A stretch of DNA of 64,000 bases from Bacteroidia bacterium (GCA_035906255.1 JAMIFM010000011.1:39607-103606); one strand, 5' to 3'. Positions 1,343-51,915 are shown, counted from the first letter of the stretch. The notes: generated from the letters alone by a model not told the origin. Numbers and translations: made by a program.

Positions 1343-1990
1343 TCCATCTGTCCTTCTGAGCGCAGCGAGGAATCTTTATTACAATTGTGTTAACAAAACG
1401 GGATAAGATACTTCCTTCGTCAGCATGACAATACTCCTAAATCCCCTGTGGGGACTTGCTCTTCCCCATGATTACGAGGTCTCCCGAAGCAATCCGTTGA
1501 TATAATAAATACTAAAAAACTGTTGACCATTGACGGTCGACTGTTGACCTGCAAACAGATTACCACGTCATCGTGCCTCCTCCTCGCAATGACGATAGTT
1601 AAGCGAGTGCGGTAAACAACATTTAACTCACCCCAAACAATACACCCTTGCCTGATAATCCAACACTTTCCCTCTCTTTGTAAGAGAGGGGCGAATATCA
1701 GAAAGTCGGCCAAAACAAAAATCGGGGGTGAGTCAAACAGCCCATAAATTCTATTTCGACAAGCTCTGTTCAAGTCCTAAAAGGGAACTTCACCAACGAC
1801 GGGCAAGTGCGGCTGCTATCCTGAGAATGCCGAAGGGTGTAGCTGTTTCCCTCCTTGGGTGGTTAGTGGGCTGGTAAGGAGGGACTAAGGGAGGTGTCAA
1901 ACAGATTGCTTCAAAACCCAAAAGCAGTTTTTCGCAATTACGATAGTTGAGCAAGTGCGGAGCAGTCCTGAGCTTGCCGAAGGGTGTGGC
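1343..1990 (+). repeat. Complete copy of the mosaic intergenic repeat element, modules G-A-B-C-D-E-F, about 650 bp.
   Basis: Shares long near-identical segments with 51325-51915 (same module order), and in reverse complement with 16170-16556, 30456-31290 and 43538-44200. Contains perfect hairpins, for example cccctctctttgtaagagagggg and tccctcctt(N17)aaggaggga. No long ORF. Confidence 0.8.
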
Positions 1991-2002
1991 CGGTTATCTG
2001 AA

Positions 2003-3700
2003 TTAAGATGATTGCGTTTCTTCTTTCTTAAATGCTTGTATCAATACGGCAAACGTAAATACCAGTACGCAGCCGATAAGGTTGAGCCACAAGAAAGATG
2101 TTAAGTCTGTAAGCCATGCGGCAATTACAAACACTTCGCCCAATAGGGCGGCATAAAACACCGCCGTGCCTCTTACGTTCTTAGCAAAAAAGGCAGTGAT
2201 GAAAATGCCCAGTATCACTCCATAAAACAACGAACCGAGAATGTTTACAGCTTCTATCAAATTGCCCAATTTGCCCGCGTATAAGGCCACAATCATACAA
2301 AATACACCCCATGCAACCGTTGCCCATCGCGAAGCATTTAAATAGCGGCGGTCGCTGCCGTTTTTGTGGGTAAACCGTTTGTAAAAATCTACTATATAGG
2401 TGGATGCCAAAGAGTTTAGTCCGCTTGCGGTTGAACCCATTGCAGCTAAAAAGATGATAGCTATCAACAATCCTACCATCCCTGTGGGCAAATAGCGGGT
2501 TACAAACCCTAAAAACACATAGTTACTGTCGTTTTTGTCGGCCAATGGGTTGTGAGCACTGATTATCCTTATAGCAGAATCTCGCACATCATTGGCTTTA
2601 GCATCCGATTGCTGCAAAGCCGCTCGCATTTCGCCTATTTTTACCTCGTTTTCAGTATGTATTGCCTCCACTAAACCGTCAACGTATTGGCGACGTTCGG
2701 CATAGGTATTTTGGTACTGCTGCTCTTGTTCTTTAAATTGTTGGGCATATTTGCTGCTCTCAACTGCATTTACTTCTACACTGTTAAAAAACACAGGCGG
2801 GGTATTAAACTGGTAAAAGGCAAAAACCAACACGCCAATCAGCAGAATAAAGAATTGCATGGGAATTTTCACCAACCCGTTCATTACCAACCCTAAACGA
2901 CTTTGGCTAACGGAACTCCCTGTAAGATAACGACCTACCTGCGACTGGTCGGTACCGAAATACGAAAGCTGCAAGAAAAATCCGCCAATAATACCCGACC
3001 AGATGTTGTAACGGTTGTTTAAGTCGAAAGTAGTATCAATGGCATTCATCCTACCCATTTTACCTGCAATGTGCAATGCATCAGTAAAACCTACTCCTTC
3101 AGGCAACATATAAACCACCATAAAAGCAGCCATAAACAACCCCGAAAAGATGATTATCATTTGGAACATTTGGGTGTATGAAACGGCTTTTGTGCCGCCA
3201 TAAACTGTATATAGTATCACAACACCCCCCATAATAAAGGTGGTGTAAATAATGCTAATATTTAAGATACTTGATAGAATAATGGCCGGAGCATAAATGG
3301 TAATACCTGTTGAAAGTCCGCGTTGCAGTAGAAATAAAAACGCCGTGAGGGCGCGGGTTTTAACATCAAAGCGGTTTTCGAGGTATTCGTATGCGGTATA
3401 AACGTTCAGGTTTTTAAAAATGGGAATAAATACCGCGCATATCAAAATCATGGCCAGCGGCAATCCAAAATAAAACTGCACAAAACGCAATCCATCAGCA
3501 TACCCCAAACCGGGTGCTGATAAAAAGGTAATGGCACTTGCCTGTGTAGCCATTACAGATAAACCTACGTGATACCAAGGTAATTGCTTATCGGCCAGTA
3601 AATACCCTTCAATATTGCGCATACCTCTGCTTTTCCACATTCCGTAAAGGGCTATGAAAAGCAACGTTCCGCCTAATACCGTCCAATCAATCCAGCTCAT
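2003..3700 (-). CDS. Sodium:solute symporter (SSS) family transporter with a ~90 aa hydrophilic central insertion.
   Basis: 565 aa multi-TM protein starting MSWIDWTVLGGTLLFIALYG. Has the SSS signature region and 13 or more hydrophobic segments. A charged coiled-coil-like insert (KYAQQFKEQEQQYQ...DVRDSAI) sits between TM blocks. Confidence 0.8.
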   Translation of the reverse strand: MSWIDWTVLGGTLLFIALYGMWKSRGMRNIEGYLLADKQLPWYHVGLSVMATQASAITFLSAPGLGYADGLRFVQFYFGLPLAMILICAVFIPIFKNLNVYTAYEYLENRFDVKTRALTAFLFLLQRGLSTGITIYAPAIILSSILNISIIYTTFIMGGVVILYTVYGGTKAVSYTQMFQMIIIFSGLFMAAFMVVYMLPEGVGFTDALHIAGKMGRMNAIDTTFDLNNRYNIWSGIIGGFFLQLSYFGTDQSQVGRYLTGSSVSQSRLGLVMNGLVKIPMQFFILLIGVLVFAFYQFNTPPVFFNSVEVNAVESSKYAQQFKEQEQQYQNTYAERRQYVDGLVEAIHTENEVKIGEMRAALQQSDAKANDVRDSAIRIISAHNPLADKNDSNYVFLGFVTRYLPTGMVGLLIAIIFLAAMGSTASGLNSLASTYIVDFYKRFTHKNGSDRRYLNASRWATVAWGVFCMIVALYAGKLGNLIEAVNILGSLFYGVILGIFITAFFAKNVRGTAVFYAALLGEVFVIAAWLTDLTSFLWLNLIGCVLVFTFAVLIQAFKKEETQSS

Positions 3701-3818
3701 TCAAAATACTTGGTAAGCAAATAAAACAAAACCATTAGCGCTGCCAATGTGCCTGCCACCAAAGCATACACATAACCCCATGTTTTAAAGAACGGTGGTT
3801 TTTCTTGGTTATTCTGCA

Positions 3819-6332
3819 TTATTTGTTTTGGGGAAGACTTAATAAATTCACAAATAAGCGGTAAGCACCGGGTACACCGTCGGGCAATTCTCTAAAAAAC
3901 GAAAGTCCGGTATATACAAAGTTTCCTTTGCCGTATGGAGCAATAATCAAACTGCCTGTTTGTGCTTCTTCGTTAGGGTCGGCCATTTCAAGCACGTGTA
4001 TAAAATTTTCACTCAATTCGGTAGCAAAGTAAATACCGCGTTCTTGCACCCAACCTTCAAAATCAGCATCGCCAATCTTATTAGGATAAGTTAGCGCGGG
4101 ATGTTCAGGGTTCGGAAACTTAACCGAAGCTGTTTCATCAGTAACCCTATTACGTGAAATGGTAAAATCATAAGGACCTATTTTGCCTGCAAATGGCCCT
4201 ACCCTGCTGTTGGTGTTATATTGCACAATAAAATTACCGCCGTTGTTTATATACTCATTAATACGGCTATTAAGCTGCAATAAACGAGCGTTGGTATTGT
4301 AGGCGCGTATTCCCGTTACAATTGCTCCGTATTTACTTAAATCATCGTTGGCAAGCATATCATCAGTAAGCTCAACTACTTTGTAACCTATTAAACGTAA
4401 GCTATTGGCCACCTCATCACCCGCACCGGGTATGTAACCAACAGTAATGTTTGTTCTTTGCAAAGGAATACTCACCAATTTGGCTTCGGCATCACTTAAT
4501 GTAAACTGATAAGGAATATGGTCGTACTGCACCCGTTGTATGGCTTTGTTGTAGGTTTTCCCGTCTATTTTTAATGAAGCAATAACACTACTATTCACAC
4601 TGTTGGGTGTGGCTCGCAATATAGCTTCTAATACCTGCTCCTCACCTTTATTCGCAATAGTAAACGAAGCATTTTTTAAGGTGATTTGCCATCCTGCGGG
4701 TATCTCTGCTTTTAAAGTCCCCTGTACGTTATTCTTATTGGCTTTTACAATAAACTTAACAGTTTGTGGTGTAGTATCACCAAACACATACGATTGTTCA
4801 GCAATATTTACCGTAGCAGGCGGTAACACCTCCAACGGACGGTACACCTCACCTTTTACAGGGTCGGTATATTTATAAATTACAGGTTGTTTCAAAGCCA
4901 ACTCAAGCCCTGCAACATTCACATAAAAAGTAACGAATATTGACCCGCCGTTTTCAGGTTTGCCACGTAATAATTGATTGTTAACAGCATAAAGTCCCAA
5001 TGTATGACTGTCTTTTAACCAATAAGGGGTTGAAAATGCTGTATTTGCCGATAATTTTTCGGTGTGTGAATATGAGAACAGTTTAGGAAAATACTCCCCT
5101 TTTTTATTGATTGCGGAAAGCTGGTTAATAACGGTGTCGGTTTGCCCAAAATAATTTACTTTTTTAAGCTCTACTGCAATACTACTGTTTACTACCCACT
5201 GGGCATTGACAGACAGGTTTTCCCCCGGTATAGCAACATAATCAGTTGCCCCCGCCTCAATCCATATTCCGGCGCAAACCAATATCAAGTTTTCGGTTTC
5301 CTGCAATTTTTGGGCTTTCCAATACCGTAAAGCAGCATCGGTTTCGTCTAATTGTTGCAAGGTTTTATACAGCTCTGTCAATCCGTTTACGGATAGCTCA
5401 GGTGACATGGGCTTGTAATCGGCTATTATTTTATCAATTTGTTTCTGTATTTTTTTAGTTCCTGTCAATCTTGCCCACGTTTGATCGATACCTTCAAACA
5501 AATCACGGCTTACAGAGTCTCCTTTTATTTGCTGAAAGAACTCGATTACCTCGCCCCTGCCCCTTGCTGAGCCAAATCCTTGGCTTTTATGATTAGAGCG
5601 GCTGTCGGCGGCTATTTCCCCATATCCTTTACCCAACAACGGATTATACAGCCCCACATTAATTTGCATTTGCTCGGGTGCAGTAGTATTAGTAGTACCA
5701 AAATTATATGAGTTCCAAAACACGCGCTTGGCTTGCCATATTTGCACGTATTGCAGTTGTTCAGGGAAACGGGTAGGGTCGGCGGCGGCATCAAATGCTT
5801 CTTCGGCCAATATAGCAGAGGCTGTATGATGTCCATGACCGCCTCGTCCGTCGGTGGGAAAACGGCAAATAATCACATCAGGTCTAAAATTACGTATTAC
5901 CCACACCACATCAGCCAGTATGCTGTCTTTGTTCCAAAATCCAAAGGTTTCTTGCGGGTTTTTGCTATAGCCAAAATCATTAGCACGGGTAAAAAACTGT
6001 TCCGCCCCGTCGGTGCGACGTGCTGCCAATAACTCTTGGGTACGTATTAGCCCCAATTGCTCTCCCAACTCTTTACCAATCAGGTTTTGGCCACCATCAC
6101 CCCTTGTAAGCGAAAGATAGCCTGTTCGCAATTTTCGCTCGTTGGCCAAATAGGCCAGCAAACGGGTGTTCTCATCGTCAGGGTGTGCAGCAACGTATAA
6201 AACCGAGCCAACGGTGTTTAACTTGTTTAATTTTTGTAGTATTTCTGCTGAGTTGTACTGGGGCGAGTTTTGCGCCTTTACACATACACTGATAAGCAGA
6301 GTGAAGTATATAAAAAAAGTGCTACGTTTCAT
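3819..6332 (-). CDS. PIG-L/LmbE family N-acetylglucosaminyl deacetylase. Large multidomain protein with a signal peptide.
   Basis: The N-terminal VAAHPDDEN...HGHH motifs are typical of PIG-L/LmbE zinc deacetylases. 837 aa. The C-terminal region resembles a ThuA/GATase1-like fold (inference). Signal peptide MKRSTFFIYFTLLISVCVKA. Confidence 0.75.
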   Translation of the reverse strand: MKRSTFFIYFTLLISVCVKAQNSPQYNSAEILQKLNKLNTVGSVLYVAAHPDDENTRLLAYLANERKLRTGYLSLTRGDGGQNLIGKELGEQLGLIRTQELLAARRTDGAEQFFTRANDFGYSKNPQETFGFWNKDSILADVVWVIRNFRPDVIICRFPTDGRGGHGHHTASAILAEEAFDAAADPTRFPEQLQYVQIWQAKRVFWNSYNFGTTNTTAPEQMQINVGLYNPLLGKGYGEIAADSRSNHKSQGFGSARGRGEVIEFFQQIKGDSVSRDLFEGIDQTWARLTGTKKIQKQIDKIIADYKPMSPELSVNGLTELYKTLQQLDETDAALRYWKAQKLQETENLILVCAGIWIEAGATDYVAIPGENLSVNAQWVVNSSIAVELKKVNYFGQTDTVINQLSAINKKGEYFPKLFSYSHTEKLSANTAFSTPYWLKDSHTLGLYAVNNQLLRGKPENGGSIFVTFYVNVAGLELALKQPVIYKYTDPVKGEVYRPLEVLPPATVNIAEQSYVFGDTTPQTVKFIVKANKNNVQGTLKAEIPAGWQITLKNASFTIANKGEEQVLEAILRATPNSVNSSVIASLKIDGKTYNKAIQRVQYDHIPYQFTLSDAEAKLVSIPLQRTNITVGYIPGAGDEVANSLRLIGYKVVELTDDMLANDDLSKYGAIVTGIRAYNTNARLLQLNSRINEYINNGGNFIVQYNTNSRVGPFAGKIGPYDFTISRNRVTDETASVKFPNPEHPALTYPNKIGDADFEGWVQERGIYFATELSENFIHVLEMADPNEEAQTGSLIIAPYGKGNFVYTGLSFFRELPDGVPGAYRLFVNLLSLPQNK

Positions 6333-16169: not shown

Positions 16170-16556
16170 TGTATGTAAGCCCCCCCTCTCCTAAGAGAAA
16201 CACAAAGGGTATATTATGCCAACCGCACCCTTCTGCAAGCTCAGGAGAACTGCCCCGCACTTGCTCAACTATCGTCATTGCGAGGAGGCCGTCTTCGGCT
16301 GACGTGGCAATCTGTTTGCAGCCCACCGTCAATGGTCAACAGTTTTTTAGTATTTAGATTTTAGTGTTTATACCAACGGATTGCTTCGGGAAGACCCTCG
16401 CAATGACGGGGAAGAGCAAGTCCCCACAGGGGATTTAGGGGTATTGTCATGCTGACGTAGGAAGCATTTTTGCGCAACGGGGTAACACAATTGTTATAAG
16501 GTTCTTCGCTGCGCTCAGAAGGACAGTATGGGTTCTTCGGCAAGTTCAGAATACAA
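16170..16556 (-). repeat. Partial mosaic repeat in reverse orientation (F', B', A', G' modules; C, D and E absent).
   Basis: Reverse complement of the segments in 1343-1990, for example caacggattgcttcgggaagaccctcgcaatgacggggaagagcaagtccccacaggggatttagg. Overlaps the spurious ORFs 16127-16357, 16144-16332 and 16361-16543. Confidence 0.75.
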
Positions 16557-30455: not shown

Positions 30456-31290
30456 CGCACCCTTCGACAAACTCTATCCTTAAACAGGCTCAGGATGGCA
30501 GCCGCACTGCTACGTTGTTGGTGGAGTTCCCTTTAGGGATTGAACAGAGCTTGTTGAAATAGAATTTAGGGGCTGTTTGACTCACCCCTGATTTTTGTTT
30601 TGGTCGATTTTCTGATATTCGCCCCTCTCTTACAAAGAGAGGGGAAGTGTTGGGTTATCAGACAAGGTTGATATGTTTTGGGTGAGTTAAATGTTTGTCT
30701 GCCGCACTCGCACAACTATCGTAATTGCGAAAAACCGCTTTTGGGTTTTGAAGCAATCCGTTTGACACCTCCCTTAGTCCCTCCTTACCAGCCCACTAAC
30801 CATCCAAGGAGGGAAACAGCCGCACCCTTCGGCATTCTAAGGATGGCAGCCGCACTGGTACGTTGTTGGTGAAGTTCCCTTTAGGGCTTGAACAGAGCTT
30901 GTCGAAGTATAATTTAGGGACTGTTTGACTCACCCCTGATTTTTGTTTTGGTCGACTTTCTAATATTCGCCCCTCTCGTACAAAGAGAGGGGCGAATATC
31001 AGGCAAGGTTGAGCTGTTTTGGGTGAGTTAAATGTTTGTCTGCCATACTTGCTTCACTATCGTCATTGCGAGGAAGCCTTCTTCGGCTGACGTGGTAATC
31101 TGTTTGCAGGTCAACAGTCCACCGTCAATGGTCAACAGTTTTTTAGTATTTAGATTTTAGTGTTTATACCAACGGATTGCTTCGGAAGACCTCGCAATGA
31201 CGGGGAAGAGCAAGTCCCCACAGGGGGATTTAGGAGTATTGTCATGCTGACGTAGGAAGCAGCTTATCCCGTTTTGATAACACAATTTAA
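30456..31290 (-). repeat. Extended mosaic-repeat array (about 835 bp) in reverse orientation, with a local tandem duplication of the D'-C' modules.
   Basis: 30480-30660 and 30830-31010 are near-identical (caggatggcagccgcactg...ttccctttaggg...tgactcacccctgatttttgttttggtcga...cccctctc(g/t)tacaaagagagggg). They are followed by B', A' and G' fragments. Overlaps the spurious ORFs 30678-30872 and 30344-30562. Confidence 0.8.
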
Positions 31291-33244: not shown

Positions 33245-33298
33245 CCGCTCAGCTACGCCACCTCTTTACTTTTTGATTTTTAATCACTTATTAGTTAA

Positions 33299-33460
33299 CA
33301 TCAGCATGACAATACCCCTAAATCCCCTGTGGGGACTTTACCAACGACGGGCAAGTGCGGCTGTTTCCCTCCTTGGGTGGTTAGTGGGCTGGTAAGGAGG
33401 GACTAAGGGAGGTGTCAAACGGATTGCTTCAAAACCCAAAAGCGGTTTTTCGCAATGACG
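33299..33460 (+). repeat. Short mosaic repeat copy (A fragment plus E module).
   Basis: tcagcatgacaatacccctaaatcccctgtgggg followed by ...ggctgtttccctccttgggtggttagtgggctggtaaggagggactaagggaggtgtcaaacggattgcttcaaaacccaaaagcggtttttcgcaatgacg. Overlaps the spurious ORF 33168-33395. Confidence 0.75.
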
Positions 33461-33618
33461 AAAATCGAAACACAAGCTCAAATCGAACATCGTTAAATCC
33501 TGAGATTATTTTATTTCCAAAGAAAATTGGCCTTCGAAGTACCGGCTAACTAAAACTAATCCCACTTCTTCAATAAGGAAAATCAAAATAACTTTTAAGT
33601 GTTTCAAATAATTTATAA

Positions 33619-34551
33619 TTGCAACCCAGGAGTTGCACTATGACACCAATATTTGAAGAATTTACCAAAAGTTATTTAATAGCGAAAAAAGAATCGTTTG
33701 CAAACAATGAAACTGCTAATTTATTTAGACACAAATTACCTCAACAAGTAAATCAATTAATCAATAGCAACAGTAGATACAAAATTGCTGGTTCAGTCGG
33801 AAAAGGTAATTGGGCAGACTGCCCTTGGATTGCAATTCTAGATTTGCTAATAACTGATAGCCCACAGTCAGGATATTATCCAGTATTCCTATTTCAGGCA
33901 GACATGAAGGGATTTTATTTATCTTTAAATCAAGGCGTCACTGAAATTAGAAATTACTACAAACACAACACAAAAGAGGTTTTATCTGTAAGAGCTACGG
34001 ATTTTAGGGCTAAAGTTAGTACTGATAATTCTCTTTTGAAGAAAATTGAACTTAACTCTAAAACTGAAAATGCAAAACTATATGAAGCAGGGAATATTTT
34101 TGCCAAATATTATAGCTCAAGTGAGCTCCCTGACAATAAAACCCTTTCCAATGACATACTTTATTTCTTAAACCTATACGATGAACTAATCAATAATGAT
34201 CAAAATATAAATGAAAACGACGAATTAACGGCTTATGAAAGTAAGAAACGTAAATTGCACTATCGGGTTGAAAGAAATAGATATATTTCTTTAAAAGTAA
34301 AAAAGAGAAAGGGATATACCTGTGAAGTTTGTGATTTCAACTTTACAACTAAATATGGTGCTTTAGGTAAAGACTTTATTGAAACTCATCATCTAATACC
34401 TATTTCAACACTAGAACTAGGGAAGTTCAAAGTTAATTTAGCTGATGATTTTGCTGTTTTATGTAGCAACTGTCATCGCATGATTCATAGACTACAAGAT
34501 ACAAGTAATATTAAAGCATTAAGGGCCATAGTTAAAAACAATAGAAAATAA
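33619..34551 (+). CDS. MrcB-N (DUF3578)-HNH nuclease, a type IV (modification-dependent) restriction-like protein.
   Basis: The N-terminal region has the DUF3578/MrcB_N hallmark KIAGSVGKGNWADCPWIAILD. The C-terminus is HNH (CEVCDF...ETHHLIPIS...CSNCHRMIH). The gene is visibly AT-richer than its neighbours. The true start is probably the Met at 33640. Confidence 0.65.
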   Translation: MQPRSCTMTPIFEEFTKSYLIAKKESFANNETANLFRHKLPQQVNQLINSNSRYKIAGSVGKGNWADCPWIAILDLLITDSPQSGYYPVFLFQADMKGFYLSLNQGVTEIRNYYKHNTKEVLSVRATDFRAKVSTDNSLLKKIELNSKTENAKLYEAGNIFAKYYSSSELPDNKTLSNDILYFLNLYDELINNDQNINENDELTAYESKKRKLHYRVERNRYISLKVKKRKGYTCEVCDFNFTTKYGALGKDFIETHHLIPISTLELGKFKVNLADDFAVLCSNCHRMIHRLQDTSNIKALRAIVKNNRK

Positions 34552-34935
34552 CTACCCCGCCAACTCCTCAAACAATTGATTAAGTTTCTTTTCAGGGTTG
34601 GTGCAAAGGCCGGGGTGCACTTTTGAAGTTTGCAATACCGTGCTGCGGTTGGCTGTGAGCCAACGGAACCGTGAGGGTAAATCCAGCTGGGCAATGGGGC
34701 CGCCATCTGCATCGCCGCGACAAACCTTCTCAAATCCTTGTAAATAATTTTCTACTTCCGTAGGTTCAATAACAGGGCAAAAAGCCTTTAAACGGTCGGC
34801 ATCCAGTACATAACGCATTTGTAAAAACTTATGCTTTTTGCAAAACAATATTACCCCCACATTAATAAACTCTTCGCGCTCCACACGGGGCACAATGCGT
34901 ATCACCGCATACTCAAACAAGTGGTTATCTTGCAT
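34552..34935 (-). CDS. DUF3037 domain protein.
   Basis: 127 aa. Conserved N-terminal block FEYAVIRIVPRVEREEFINVGVILF is typical of DUF3037 (recollection). Overlaps the upstream kinase gene by 11 nt. Confidence 0.55.
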   Translation of the reverse strand: MQDNHLFEYAVIRIVPRVEREEFINVGVILFCKKHKFLQMRYVLDADRLKAFCPVIEPTEVENYLQGFEKVCRGDADGGPIAQLDLPSRFRWLTANRSTVLQTSKVHPGLCTNPEKKLNQLFEELAG

Positions 34936-35755
34936 TTTCTGCCTCCTTCACAAAAATATCCGATGCCTGCAAACGTGCGGTTAAAAAACCGTTATATACC
35001 TCACGGCGGCTTTCGGCCGTTTCGTCAATAGTGTTTTCAAGCAACCACTCATCGGGTACTTGTGCCACAATTCCCCTGATGATTTCAGGGGTAAGTATCC
35101 GCCTAAACTCATCATTCACACTTTCAAGTTCAGTCGCTCGGCGCAACAACACATGGTCTTTCACTTGCACAAACGGTTTTTTAGCTTGCTCCTCCCAATT
35201 GTCCCACGAGTGGTGAAAATACAGCGATGCACCGTGGTCTATCAACCACAACTCTTTATGCCACCATAGCATATTGGTATTGCGAGCCGTGCGGTCAACA
35301 TTCGTAAGCAAACTATCCAACCACACAATTTTAGAAGACAATAACGGGTCTATCAGCGTTACCGCAGGGTCGTAGGTCATACTTCCTTGCAGGTAATGTA
35401 CGCCCAAATTCAACCCCTCACTTTTGCGCAGCAATTCTTGTATTTCCTCATCGCCTTCGGTGCGACCAAAATCCGCATCCAAATGGGCAAATACCATTTC
35501 GGGTACTTTAAAACCTAACACTCGGGCAATTTCTCCGCCTATAAAATCAGCAATCAACGATTTCACCCCCTGCCCTGCCCCTCTAAACTTAAGCACATAC
35601 AAAAAATCATCATCAGCCTCGGCAATGGCAGGCAAAGAACCGCCTTCGCGAAGCGGGGTAACGTACCGCACAACATTTACATGGCGGGGAGATGTAAGCA
35701 CTTTTGTCATCACAATAAATTTTTCATCTACAGCGTACTGTGTATGATAAGGCAA
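34925..35755 (-). CDS. HipA-like / PI3-4-kinase-superfamily atypical kinase.
   Basis: Catalytic-loop-like TNVDRTARNTN and IDHG (DFG-like) motifs spaced as in HipA/PI3K-fold kinases. 276 aa. Glycine-rich loop LKFRGAGQG. Confidence 0.5.
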   Translation of the reverse strand: MPYHTQYAVDEKFIVMTKVLTSPRHVNVVRYVTPLREGGSLPAIAEADDDFLYVLKFRGAGQGVKSLIADFIGGEIARVLGFKVPEMVFAHLDADFGRTEGDEEIQELLRKSEGLNLGVHYLQGSMTYDPAVTLIDPLLSSKIVWLDSLLTNVDRTARNTNMLWWHKELWLIDHGASLYFHHSWDNWEEQAKKPFVQVKDHVLLRRATELESVNDEFRRILTPEIIRGIVAQVPDEWLLENTIDETAESRREVYNGFLTARLQASDIFVKEAENAR

Positions 35756-35784
35756 TTTTACTATATTTTGCCCAAGTAAAAGCT

Positions 35785-36888
35785 ATGAAAACTACCCCTT
35801 TTGTTTATTTACTGCTCTTTTGCGCAACTGTAATCTTATTACCATCGTGCAAAGTAGGTCGTTTTGTGTTTTATAATTTTGCCGATTTAAACGACCATAA
35901 AAAGTTTCCGGCCCGAACCGTGGCAAACGATAGCGTGCGGTTTAAATTTCATCAGCCGCAAGTACCCAAATTTCCTAAGACGATTACTGTTAATAAGCGT
36001 GAAACGAGCTTTGATAAATTCTTAAAAGACAATAAAACGGTGGCTTTTTTGATAATTAAAGATGATTCTATCCATTATGAAAATTATTTTAGGGATTACG
36101 ATTCATCTTCTATTATCCCCTCTTTTTCGGTGGGAAAATCTATTCTTTCAGTCTTAATAGGATGTGCTGTTGATGATGGGTTGTTGAATGTTAATGACTC
36201 TGTTTTGAAATACTTACCCCAATTGCACAAAAGTTTTGAAAAGGTAACGGTGCGTGATTTGCTGCAAATGACTTCGGGGGTTGAGTTTAACGAAAGTTAC
36301 TGGAACCCGTTTGGCCATGCTGCTTCGTTTTATTATGGCAGGAATTTGTATAAGGAGTGTAAGAAGTTAAAGGTAAAAACCGCTCCTGCACAAGAATTTG
36401 AATACATAAGCGGAAATACCCAGTTATTGGGTTTGGTGCTTGAAAAGGCATTAAAGGGAAAGACCATTTCGCAATACATGGTGGAGAAGTTGTGGAAACC
36501 CTTGCAAATGGAATATAGTGGAAGCTGGAGCATTGACCGCAAAAAGGGCGGCGTGGAGAAAACATTTTGCTGTGTGAATGCCCGCGCCCGCGATTTTGCA
36601 AAAATAGGCCGTTTGTATCTTAACAAAGGAAATTGGAACGGTAAGCAAATACTTAGCCGCCAATGGGTTGAAACTTCAACAACCATTGATACTGCCAACG
36701 GCAGTGCTTGGTTTTATCAATACGGTTGGTGGCTGCCTACCAAAAACGGCGATTTTATGGCCATTGGTATTTTGGGGCAATACATTTATGTGAACCCTGC
36801 CAAAAACATGGTTATTGTGCGTATGGGCAAACAGGTGGGTAATGTGGATTGGCGTTATATTCTACCGTCGTTGGCTGAGGGGTATTAA
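35785..36888 (+). CDS. Serine hydrolase, beta-lactamase/transpeptidase-like family.
   Basis: S-x-x-K motif SVGKS, plus YxN-like and KTG-equivalent regions. Signal peptide beginning MKTTPFVYLLLF. The ORF track starts at 35740. Confidence 0.75.
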   Translation: MKTTPFVYLLLFCATVILLPSCKVGRFVFYNFADLNDHKKFPARTVANDSVRFKFHQPQVPKFPKTITVNKRETSFDKFLKDNKTVAFLIIKDDSIHYENYFRDYDSSSIIPSFSVGKSILSVLIGCAVDDGLLNVNDSVLKYLPQLHKSFEKVTVRDLLQMTSGVEFNESYWNPFGHAASFYYGRNLYKECKKLKVKTAPAQEFEYISGNTQLLGLVLEKALKGKTISQYMVEKLWKPLQMEYSGSWSIDRKKGGVEKTFCCVNARARDFAKIGRLYLNKGNWNGKQILSRQWVETSTTIDTANGSAWFYQYGWWLPTKNGDFMAIGILGQYIYVNPAKNMVIVRMGKQVGNVDWRYILPSLAEGY

Positions 36889-43537: not shown

Positions 43538-44200
43538 TAAAGGGTGCGGCGGTGGTTGGTAAGGAGTGATTAAATTATATTAACAAACGGGATAAGATGC
43601 TTCCTACGTCAGCATGACAATACTCCTAAATCCCCTGTGGGGACTTTACCAACGACGGGCAAGCGCGGCTGCCCTCCTGAGAATGCCGAAGGGTGCGGCT
43701 GTTTCCCTCCTTGGGTGGTTAGTGGGCTGGTAAGGAGGGACTAAGGGAGGTGTCAAACGGATTGCTTCAAAACCCGAAGATGGTTTTTCGCAATGACGAT
43801 AGTTGAGCGAGTGCGGCAGACAACATTTAACTCACCCAAAACAGCTTAACCTTGTCTGATAACCCAACACTTCCCCTCTCTTTGTAAGAGAGGGGCGAAT
43901 ATCAGAAAGTCGGCCAAAACAAAAATCAAGGGTGAGTCAAACAGCCCCTAAATTCTACTTCAACAAGCTCTGTTCAAACCCTAAAGGGAACTTTACCAAC
44001 GACGTACCATGCGGCAGATTTCCTGAGCTTGCCGAAGGATAGTGCCTGCTAAAGGGTGCGGCGGTGGTTGGTAAGGAGTGATTAAATTATATTAACAAAC
44101 GGGATAAGATGCTTCCTACGTCAGCATGACAATACACCTAAATCCCCTGTGGGGACTTGCTCTTCCCCGTTATTGCGAGGCCTATCCGAAGCAATCAGCT
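43538..44200 (+). repeat. Mosaic repeat array (G, A, E, B-end, C, D modules plus a second G-A copy), about 660 bp.
   Basis: The 60-nt block cctactaaagggtgcggcggtggttggtaaggagtgattaaattatattaacaaacgggataagatgcttcctacgtcagcatgacaata occurs twice (43538 and 44052). Internal modules are near-identical to 1343-1990 and 51325-51915. Overlaps the spurious ORF 44126-44365. Confidence 0.8.
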
Positions 44201-45548: not shown

Positions 45549-45881
45549 TTGCACATGAACCCATACCCAAGCCCGCAGGCTGCCCTTGATGATTTTAGCA
45601 GGGTGATTGACCAACTTGCTGCCGATTTACAATTGTATGCCGCCCGACAGCAGCCCAACTACACCTACATGGATAAGCAAAATATGCTGATACGCCACCT
45701 TACCGAGATATACAATGGCATTACTACCCTGCAACACTATGATGCTTGGACGGCTGTTGAAACCCGAATGCTAAGCTTTGTGCGGCAAGACGCTAACCTT
45801 TGCGGACACATGATACGCTTGCGCACAAAACCCGAAGGGAATAATTTTTCGCTGATTGGATATGACCCGTTTAACCCCTAA
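45549..45881 (+). CDS. Hypothetical small protein.
   Basis: 110 aa ORF with reasonable codon usage. No motifs. Confidence 0.35.
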   Translation: MHMNPYPSPQAALDDFSRVIDQLAADLQLYAARQQPNYTYMDKQNMLIRHLTEIYNGITTLQHYDAWTAVETRMLSFVRQDANLCGHMIRLRTKPEGNNFSLIGYDPFNP

Positions 45882-45882
45882 C

Positions 45883-45990
45883 TTATACTTCGACAAGTTC
45901 TGTACAAGTCTTAAAGGGAACTTTACGCACTACGAACGAGTGTGGTAGTTTCCTGAGCTTGCCGAAGGGTGCGGAGGAAGGCTTCGGAAA
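45883..45990 (+). repeat. Isolated D-module copy of the mosaic repeat.
   Basis: cttatacttcgacaagttctgtacaagtcttaaagggaactttacgcactacgaacgagtgtggtagtttcctgagcttgccgaagggtgcgg matches the D module (1749-1850, 51668-51760). Confidence 0.7.
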
Positions 45991-48835: not shown

Positions 48836-49030
48836 CCGCACCCTTTAGCAGGCACTATCCTTCGGCATTCTCAGGATGGCAGCCGCGCTTGCCCGTCGTT
48901 GGTAAAGTCCCCACAGGGGATTTAGGGGTATTGTCATGCTGAGCGATAGCGAAGCACCTTATCCCGCTTTGTGAACACAGTTGTTATAAGGTTCTTCGCT
49001 GCGCTTAGAAGGACAGAGAGGGGCGAAGTT
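48836..49030 (-). repeat. Mosaic repeat in reverse orientation (D'-end, A', G').
   Basis: cagcaggcactatccttcggcattctcaggatggcagccgcgcttgcccgtcgttggtaaagtccccacaggggatttaggggtattgtcatgctga...gttcttcgctgcgcttagaaggacag. Confidence 0.75.
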
Positions 49031-51279: not shown

Positions 51280-51324
51280 TTTTAGAGTTTATTATTTAGA
51301 GTTTAGTTACCTGTACCGCTCCTC

Positions 51325-51915
51325 TGTCAGCATGACAATACCTCTAAATCCCCTGTGGGGACTTGCTCTTCCTCGTCATTGCGAGGTCTTCCGAAGCAAT
51401 CCGTTGGCATAAACACTAAAATCTAAATACTAAAAAACTGTTGACCATTGACGGTCGACTGCTGACCTGCGAGCAGATTGCCACGTCAGCCGAAGACGGC
51501 CTCCTCGCAATGACGATAGTTGAGCGAGTGCGGCAGACAACATTTAACTCACCCAAAACATCCCAACCTTGCTTGATAACCCAACACTTCCCCTCTCTTT
51601 GTAAGAGAGGGGCGAATGTCAGAAAGTCGACCAAAACAAAAATCAGGGGTGAGTCAAACAGCCTCCCTAAATTCTACTTCGACAAGCTCTGTTCAAGCCC
51701 TAAAGGGAACTTCAACAACGACGTACCAGTACGGCTGCCATCCTGAGAATGCCGAAGGGTGCGGCTGTTTCCCTCCTTGGGTGGTTAGTGGGCTGGTAAG
51801 GAGGGACTAAGGGAGGTGCCAAACGGATTGCTTCAAAACCCAAAAGCGGTTTTTCGCAATGACGATAGTTGAGCAAGTGCAACAGCCATCTTGAGCCTGC
51901 CGAAGGGTGCGGTTG
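51325..51915 (+). repeat. Second complete mosaic repeat copy (A-B-C-D-E-F), about 590 bp.
   Basis: Collinear and highly similar to 1400-1990. Overlaps the spurious ORFs 51416-51634, 51441-51746 and 51616-51810. Confidence 0.85.

Follow-up and report, generated by a model that had tools for sequence, protein, structure and literature searches.

Known kinase-DUF3037 systems and the pair in the window

DUF3037 proteins are strongly associated with HipA-like kinases, and the pair carries the name PDC-M66 in PADLOC (PMC12548924). Sphingobacterium daejeonense carries such a pair in its Retron-Sda1 operon, where kinase and DUF3037 protein form a standalone defence against phage Bas51; deletion of the kinase abolished defence and deletion of DUF3037 was toxic (PMC12548924). 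A second pair, the prophage-borne DS-6 of E. coli, was validated as anti-phage and renamed HipAD, which is credited to Brenes & Laub 2025 (PMC13092281). Its DS-6A is a HipA-related kinase and its DS-6B has both DUF3037 and DUF1829. AlphaFold3 predicts a DS-6A:DS-6B complex (interface predicted template modelling score 0.76-0.79), and the catalytic DS-6A mutant D139A, named in the strain table, loses defence (PMC13092281). The kinase-DUF3037 kind is thus already known, as a PADLOC candidate that was validated in papers of 2025-2026. Here we describe such a pair on the minus strand of a 64,000-nucleotide stretch of DNA from a Bacteroidia bacterium (GCA_035906255.1, JAMIFM010000011.1:39607-103606), which as a whole is called the window.

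An earlier reading made from the sequence alone (the sequence-only reading) had proposed the pair as a candidate toxin-antitoxin or signalling module and mentioned a pairing of DUF3037 with HipA-family kinases elsewhere. That pairing is indeed published (PMC12548924, PMC13092281) and PADLOC lists it, so the novelty is lower than was implied; the toxin-antitoxin proposal gains experimental backing in homologues from the same two papers.

On balance we think it probable that the window pair is the minimal, short-partner form of the PDC-M66/DS-6 (HipAD) module, in which DUF3037 restrains a harmful kinase. This reading is carried by the identities of the two genes, the fold of the kinase, its intact active site, the pairing with overlap that relatives conserve, and the homology to validated systems. 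By homology to the long-type relatives only, the kinase would be toxic and DUF3037 would neutralise it; the trigger and the target, too, are proposed from that homology. Kinase and DUF3037 would be made together from the overlapping genes, and DUF3037 would bind the kinase and keep it inactive. Disturbance of the complex, which in the validated relatives comes with phage infection, would release the kinase, and the freed kinase would phosphorylate one or more essential host proteins, leading to growth arrest. The features of the pair are as follows.

34925..35710, minus strand: kinase gene, encoding a HipA_2-family (HipA-like, protein-kinase-like fold) Ser/Thr kinase of 261 aa from ATG 35710
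34925-34927, minus strand: kinase stop codon TAA
35755..34925, minus strand: maximal kinase open reading frame (ORF), 276 aa from a TTG start
35711..35755, minus strand: 5' extension of the maximal kinase ORF, 15 extra codons up to the TTG; holds a -7-like box
34552..34935, minus strand: DUF3037 gene, 127 aa from an ATG start, single domain; proposed kinase-binding neutraliser
34925-34935, minus strand: dual-coding overlap of 11 nt, kinase C-terminus ...ENAR and stop over the DUF3037 start MQD...
35711..35784, no strand: divergent intergenic region, 74 bp between the kinase gene and the beta-lactamase-family gene
35785..36888, plus strand: beta-lactamase-family gene, diverging from the kinase gene

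The window pair resembles DS-6/HipAD in its layout, a HipA_2 kinase of ~250 aa whose gene is followed by and overlaps a DUF3037 gene of the same strand, and in the conserved kinase residues K41, D139, N144 and D158. Klebsiella phage Kp4864-1 (OK490416.1) has, 3' of a 250-aa kinase, an ORF whose product is identical to DS-6B (sequence from the supplement) at 229/275 positions. In the Kp4864-1 kinase the Asp of NADRT corresponds to D139 of DS-6A, and the alignment places it opposite D139 of the window kinase, in NVDRT. The Kp4864-1 record is unannotated; its DS-6/HipAD-like pair occupies 3417-5810, directly downstream of a cI/S24-type repressor gene.

The partners differ. DS-6B has 275 aa, with a DUF1829-like C-terminal half predicted to contact DNA, whereas the 127-aa window partner is DUF3037 only and lacks the ~150-aa C-terminal domain of the long partners. 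Because that predicted DNA-contacting domain is missing, DNA binding or sensing through a C-terminal domain can be no part of the short-form mechanism. DS-6-like pairs are found in prophages beside the repressor and in 45 IMG/VR contigs, whereas IMG/VR gave none of the window type. Retron-Sda1 shares the Bacteroidota host and the order of kinase and DUF3037, but its operon adds an upstream helix-turn-helix (HTH) gene and a retron reverse transcriptase with its non-coding RNA, none of which the window pair has. The C-terminal region of its DUF3037 protein, resembling retron type III-A1 DNA-binding proteins, is likewise missing from the window protein, and the kinase N-terminus, the only part of that kinase compared, is divergent. 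The family can be divided into two types by the length of the partner.

Long type (examples Kp4864-1/DS-6 and Shinella): kinase ~245-250 aa, partner ~275-281 aa
Long type, Pfam E-values: HipA_2 1e-77 to 1e-92, DUF3037 1e-26
Short type (examples the window, other Bacteroidota, Streptomyces and Leptolyngbya): kinase ~249-265 aa, partner ~127-142 aa, DUF3037 only
Short type, Pfam E-values: HipA_2 1e-15 to 1e-17, DUF3037 1e-42 to 1e-48

Conservation and anatomy of the pair

Relatives of the kinase were searched in one genome per species and found in 327 genomes. The 80 relatives referred to below are the best 80 of these 327 loci; all are Bacteroidota, with 66-92% kinase identity, and they include Dyadobacter, Emticicia, Pedobacter, Mucilaginibacter and Arcticibacter as well as Chitinophagaceae. 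A DUF3037 gene lies directly downstream of the kinase gene, overlapping it, in 80/80 of these loci, so the conserved pairing for which the sequence-only reading had suggested a gene-neighbourhood check is present throughout. The overlap measures 23 nt in 71/80 relatives and 11 nt in 6/80. The window has the 11-nt form, both minus-strand ORFs sharing 34925-34935, as that reading had noted. When the flanking ORFs were clustered, only the kinase (~265 aa) and DUF3037 (~127 aa) were common across the 80 loci, and the flanks of the pair were syntenic within genus-level groups only. In the upstream regions of relatives that were inspected, no conserved operator or palindrome was seen, and -7-like boxes were the only shared element. 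As the pairing and an overlap are conserved, and neither another gene nor an operator is shared across the loci, the pair is a self-contained bicistronic module that is translationally coupled.

In two Dyadobacter loci (L030 and L070) the ATG-based kinase ORFs are only 162 and 158 aa long. By tblastn the kinase match is full-length in L030 and covers 9-261 in L070; frameshifts, alternative starts or pseudogenes may account for this. A metagenome-assembled genome labelled 'Agrobacterium sp.' is the window's closest genomic relative (92% kinase identity), and another match is labelled 'Janthinobacterium lividum'. Since genes and context are clearly Bacteroidota, both are probably mis-binned or mislabelled.

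The kinase had been read as a 276-aa protein. This ORF exists, but it is the maximal one, and the protein probably starts at ATG 35710 and has 261 aa, the TTG form being over-extended. The ATG start is suggested by the alignment of homologue N-termini with M16 of the 276-aa ORF, by the 261-aa form carried in NCBI-derived records (P0121), and by a Bacteroidota -7-like box that overlaps the TTG. This box, TAAAATTG at 35753-35760 on the minus strand, is a candidate promoter by motif match alone. The 15-codon extension (35711..35755) is thus probably untranslated. TAnnTTTG-like boxes are seen 25-50 nt 5' of the kinase start in many relatives, and the 74-bp region is presumed to hold the bicistronic operon's own promoter. 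An AAGGAGG lies 7 nt 5' of the DUF3037 ATG.

The kinase matches Pfam HipA_2 (PF20613; 64.1 bits, E 1.6e-17, cutoff 27) and PADLOC PDC-M66A (E 1.1e-20, model positions 13-244 of 270). Pfam gave no HipA_N, Couple_hipA, HipA_C or HTH signal in it, and Foldseek agrees that the HipA N-terminal domain is missing, as had been claimed from the sequence. No NCBIfam model matches the kinase or the DUF3037 protein; NCBI-derived records name the relatives 'HipA family kinase' and 'DUF3037 domain-containing protein'. Looking up the exact sequence of the window DUF3037 protein among contigs gave no record. The AlphaFold2 model (predicted local distance difference test, pLDDT, 76; predicted template modelling score, pTM, 0.81) has a protein-kinase-like fold. 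Its top Foldseek match is Helicobacter pylori CtkA (3akk; E 3.9e-5, TM 0.52), followed by Fam20C, Rio1, PI4KIIalpha (E 0.01) and Shewanella HipA (4pu4, E 0.018). Profile searches of PDB sequences returned nothing meaningful for the kinase or DUF3037, and there was no sequence match to solved Hip proteins. CtkA (JHP940), the closest solved structure, is likewise a small bacterial kinase, but is only 11-13% identical to the window kinase; it has no DUF3037 partner, and its described role in H. pylori is that of a proinflammatory kinase.

The two motifs reported earlier are present, TNVDRTARNTN at residues 136-146 and IDHG at 157-160 (261-aa numbering, used throughout), and are invariant or nearly so among 36 homologues; Pfam HipA_2 and Foldseek bear out the kinase-like fold that had been proposed. 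Invariant in the 36 homologues are the Gly-rich loop R21-E-G-G-S25, K41, E60, N137-V-D139-R-T-x-R-N144 and D158-H-G. We propose that all of these form the active site, with K41 in VLKF, N137-N144 as the catalytic loop and D158-H-G binding Mg. Because they are invariant, the kinase looks catalytically competent. The alignment shows K41, D139, N144 and D158 unchanged in short-type kinases and in those of the validated long type alike. Short-type kinases have an extra SLYFHHSWDNW after DHG and are without the TDKGG insertion in the catalytic loop.

The partner is DUF3037, as the sequence-only reading had it: Pfam DUF3037 (PF11236) spans the whole 127-aa protein (164.3 bits, E 1.5e-48, cutoff 22.6, model positions 1-117 of 118). 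It also matches PADLOC PDC-M66B (E 1.1e-13), only in positions 3-127 of the 281-position model. The AlphaFold2 model (pLDDT 90.6, pTM 0.83) runs beta-beta-beta, four helices, beta-beta, helix. Foldseek of this model against PDB found no solved structural relative (best E 0.59), and a BFVD search yielded only a few uncharacterised phage proteins of DUF3037-like fold. Among 1.84 billion representative proteins, profile searching picked out 2353 DUF3037 clusters. Almost all of the best 150 of these are ~125-135 aa long, and the short DUF3037 form is therefore a large subfamily.

Two motifs stand out in the partner. The N-terminal FEYAxxRxxPxVEREEFxNxGV is common to the long type, the shared form in short- and long-type partners being YAxxRxxPxxExEEFxNxGV. 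RFRWLTAxRSTxxQxSKVHPG is specific to the short type; its polar form WLTAxRSxxxQxxxVHxGL is common to short-type partners in three phyla and is not conserved in the long type.

Short-type pairs were also seen on plasmids. In Streptomyces sp. 2P-4 (NZ_CP095012.1, 92222-93363) the pair has a 4-nt overlap and is flanked by ccrA and a phosphopantetheinyl transferase gene. A polyketide synthase gene and facT, for elfamycin efflux, are adjacent, which places the pair within an antibiotic biosynthetic cluster; S. globosus NZ_CP030864.1 is implied to have the same arrangement. In plasmid p1 of Leptolyngbya boryana IU 594 (locus 1770-4411) the kinase is cut to its C-terminal third (tblastn 168-261) next to an IS110 transposase, and DUF3037 is intact. 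This asymmetry, a single case, fits what would be expected if the kinase were the harmful partner.

Genomic setting and mode of inheritance

The pair had been placed in a defence island. This part of the sequence-only reading did not hold, as Pfam searches of 20 neighbouring genes gave housekeeping functions, including PanB, a thioredoxin-reductase-like protein, a MacB/FtsX permease, acetyl-CoA synthetase, RibD_C, an M24 peptidase and a CDF transporter. The sole defence-like neighbour is the following gene.

33619/33640..34551, plus strand: MrcB_N+HNH gene, type IV restriction-like

It and the DUF3037 gene are convergent and meet stop to stop, 0 nt apart, in agreement with the abutment reported earlier, so that a terminator has no space between them. 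The MrcB_N-HNH islet (33400-34551) has 29-33% GC, compared with 42-47% in the surrounding genes and 44-47% in the kinase/DUF3037 pair, and MrcB_N-HNH is missing from 80/80 related loci. It looks like a recent single-gene insertion, and being low in GC and missing from the relatives it reduces the supposed defence island to one recently inserted gene. The neighbours of the pair in the relatives are ordinary as well (SDR, LytTR regulator, cysteine synthase, aminopeptidase N; judged from representative sequences, not Pfam).

In the window, no tRNA was found between 28 and 40 kb and no Rfam family between 30 and 38 kb. The intergenic regions hold a dispersed family of repeats, ~345 nt per unit, which is tandemly duplicated at 30478-31260 and whose other copies are 80-98% identical. 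One inverted repeat fragment (107 nt, 98% identical) lies just 5' of the MrcB-HNH islet. The family has no Rfam or tRNA match and may be a MITE-like (miniature inverted-repeat transposable element) or REP-like (repetitive extragenic palindromic) element. Further copies are at these positions.

1411-1960: repeat copy
16259-16465: repeat copy
33298-33461: repeat copy
43599-44196: repeat copy
45875-45974: repeat copy
48859-48942: repeat copy
51320-51888: repeat copy

Several observations weigh against a restrained, harmful kinase of the HipAD kind. The functional data for the kinase-DUF3037 family come from the long type only, to which the window pair is just 26-27% identical, and the HipA_2 Pfam score of the window kinase (1e-17) is far weaker than that of the long type (1e-77 to 1e-92). 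Neither a DNA-binding domain (Pfam) nor a conserved operator was found, and classical type II autoregulation is not evident. The pair is surrounded by housekeeping genes at native GC. In 51 syntenic locus pairs its divergence tracks that of the flanks, the kinase identity exceeding the flank median in 38/51, and a neighbour-joining tree sorts the sequences mostly by genus or order. When 2.9 million IMG/VR contigs were searched by the same method for both types, the short-type kinase was found in 0 and the long type in 45. Motif searches of IMG/VR with LWLIDHG and TNVDRT[APV]R gave no short type either. Such a setting, divergence and distribution are unusual for a mobile defence system. The pair looks stably inherited in the chromosome.

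These distribution data favour another explanation, namely that the short pair consists of a vertically inherited kinase of regulatory function and its regulatory subunit or substrate, serving for instance growth or stress control in Bacteroidota; it would share ancestry with the mobile HipAD-type modules and be neither toxin-antitoxin nor anti-phage. Besides the housekeeping flanks that are syntenic within genera, the divergence in step with the flanks, the roughly taxonomic tree, the native GC and the lack of viral copies, the kinase keeps ~70% and DUF3037 ~58% identity over Chitinophagales, Sphingobacteriales and Cytophagales (327 species genomes). Conservation of WLTAxRSxxxQxxxVHxGL in three phyla suggests a specific site and not a simple plug. 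However, stable vertical inheritance is also possible for chromosomal toxin-antitoxin modules, a patchy distribution within genera stays compatible with the scan of one genome per species, and toxicity, neutralisation and defence are what the only functional data for this family of gene pairs indicate. Overall we hold the regulatory-kinase explanation to be possible, though doubtful.

Tentatively, the short pair may form a distinct, ancient, vertical chromosomal lineage (Bacteroidota, Actinomycetota, Cyanobacteriota) that acts as an endogenous kinase switch and not as mobile anti-phage defence, DUF3037 being a specific regulator or substrate through its WLTAxRSxxxQxxxVHxGL site. It could be the cellular ancestor of the prophage HipAD modules, the C-terminal domain having been added on recruitment, or a domesticated descendant of them. 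We would not rate this as likely.

Other readings of the pair and its meaning

That the kinase acts on a small molecule or lipid, as a PI3/4-kinase-like enzyme or an antibiotic or metabolite kinase with DUF3037 as an accessory subunit, appears improbable. The idea draws on a weak PI3_PI4_kinase Pfam match (E 0.009), on the PI4KIIalpha match in Foldseek (E 0.01), and on the two Streptomyces plasmids that carry a short-type pair inside a polyketide (elfamycin-type) cluster. The Pfam match is, however, sub-threshold (16.4 vs 27.1 bits), and the best structural matches are protein kinases. Moreover, the relatives are toxins that depend on the catalytic Asp, and the 80 loci have no metabolic neighbour in common.

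The gene order of the window pair is found among described Hip systems. The short Hip kinases (HipJ/I/M/G; Gerdes et al. 2021) resemble the window kinase in being without N-subdomain 1, and hipJS, hipIN and hipMP also encode the kinase first and then a small partner, a putative antitoxin (PMC8262856). Canonical HipBA has HipA_N, HipA_C and an upstream HTH protein HipB, whereas the window kinase matches none of these and comes first. Unlike in HipBST, the partner is DUF3037, for which Foldseek gave no match to HipS or the HipA N-subdomain. We therefore regard it as very improbable that DUF3037 is a HipS-like split-off HipA N-subdomain 1, completing or occluding the kinase as in hipBST and hipJS: the kinase does lack the HipA N-terminal domain, a ~120-aa partner is encoded alongside and the order is that of hipJS, hipIN and hipMP (PMC8262856), but the Foldseek search of PDB, which should include HipA/HipBST structures, reached only E 0.59, the PDB profile search was empty and Pfam gave no Couple_hipA or HipA_N.

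Taken together, the preferred reading remains a short-type HipAD-like module with a kinase that DUF3037 would restrain. For annotation, it allows an upgrade from 'hypothetical/DUF' to 'HipAD-like kinase-DUF3037 module, short type', a modest practical gain, and the pair is not to be taken as a sign of a defence island. In the literature searched we found no description of the short-partner subfamily as a lineage of its own that is non-mobile and evolves slowly. As the short form keeps only the kinase and a bare DUF3037, it is a minimal system for studying the control of the kinase by DUF3037. That its distribution is stable, chromosomal and non-phage raises the question of whether all members of the family act in defence or whether some act in the cell's own regulation.
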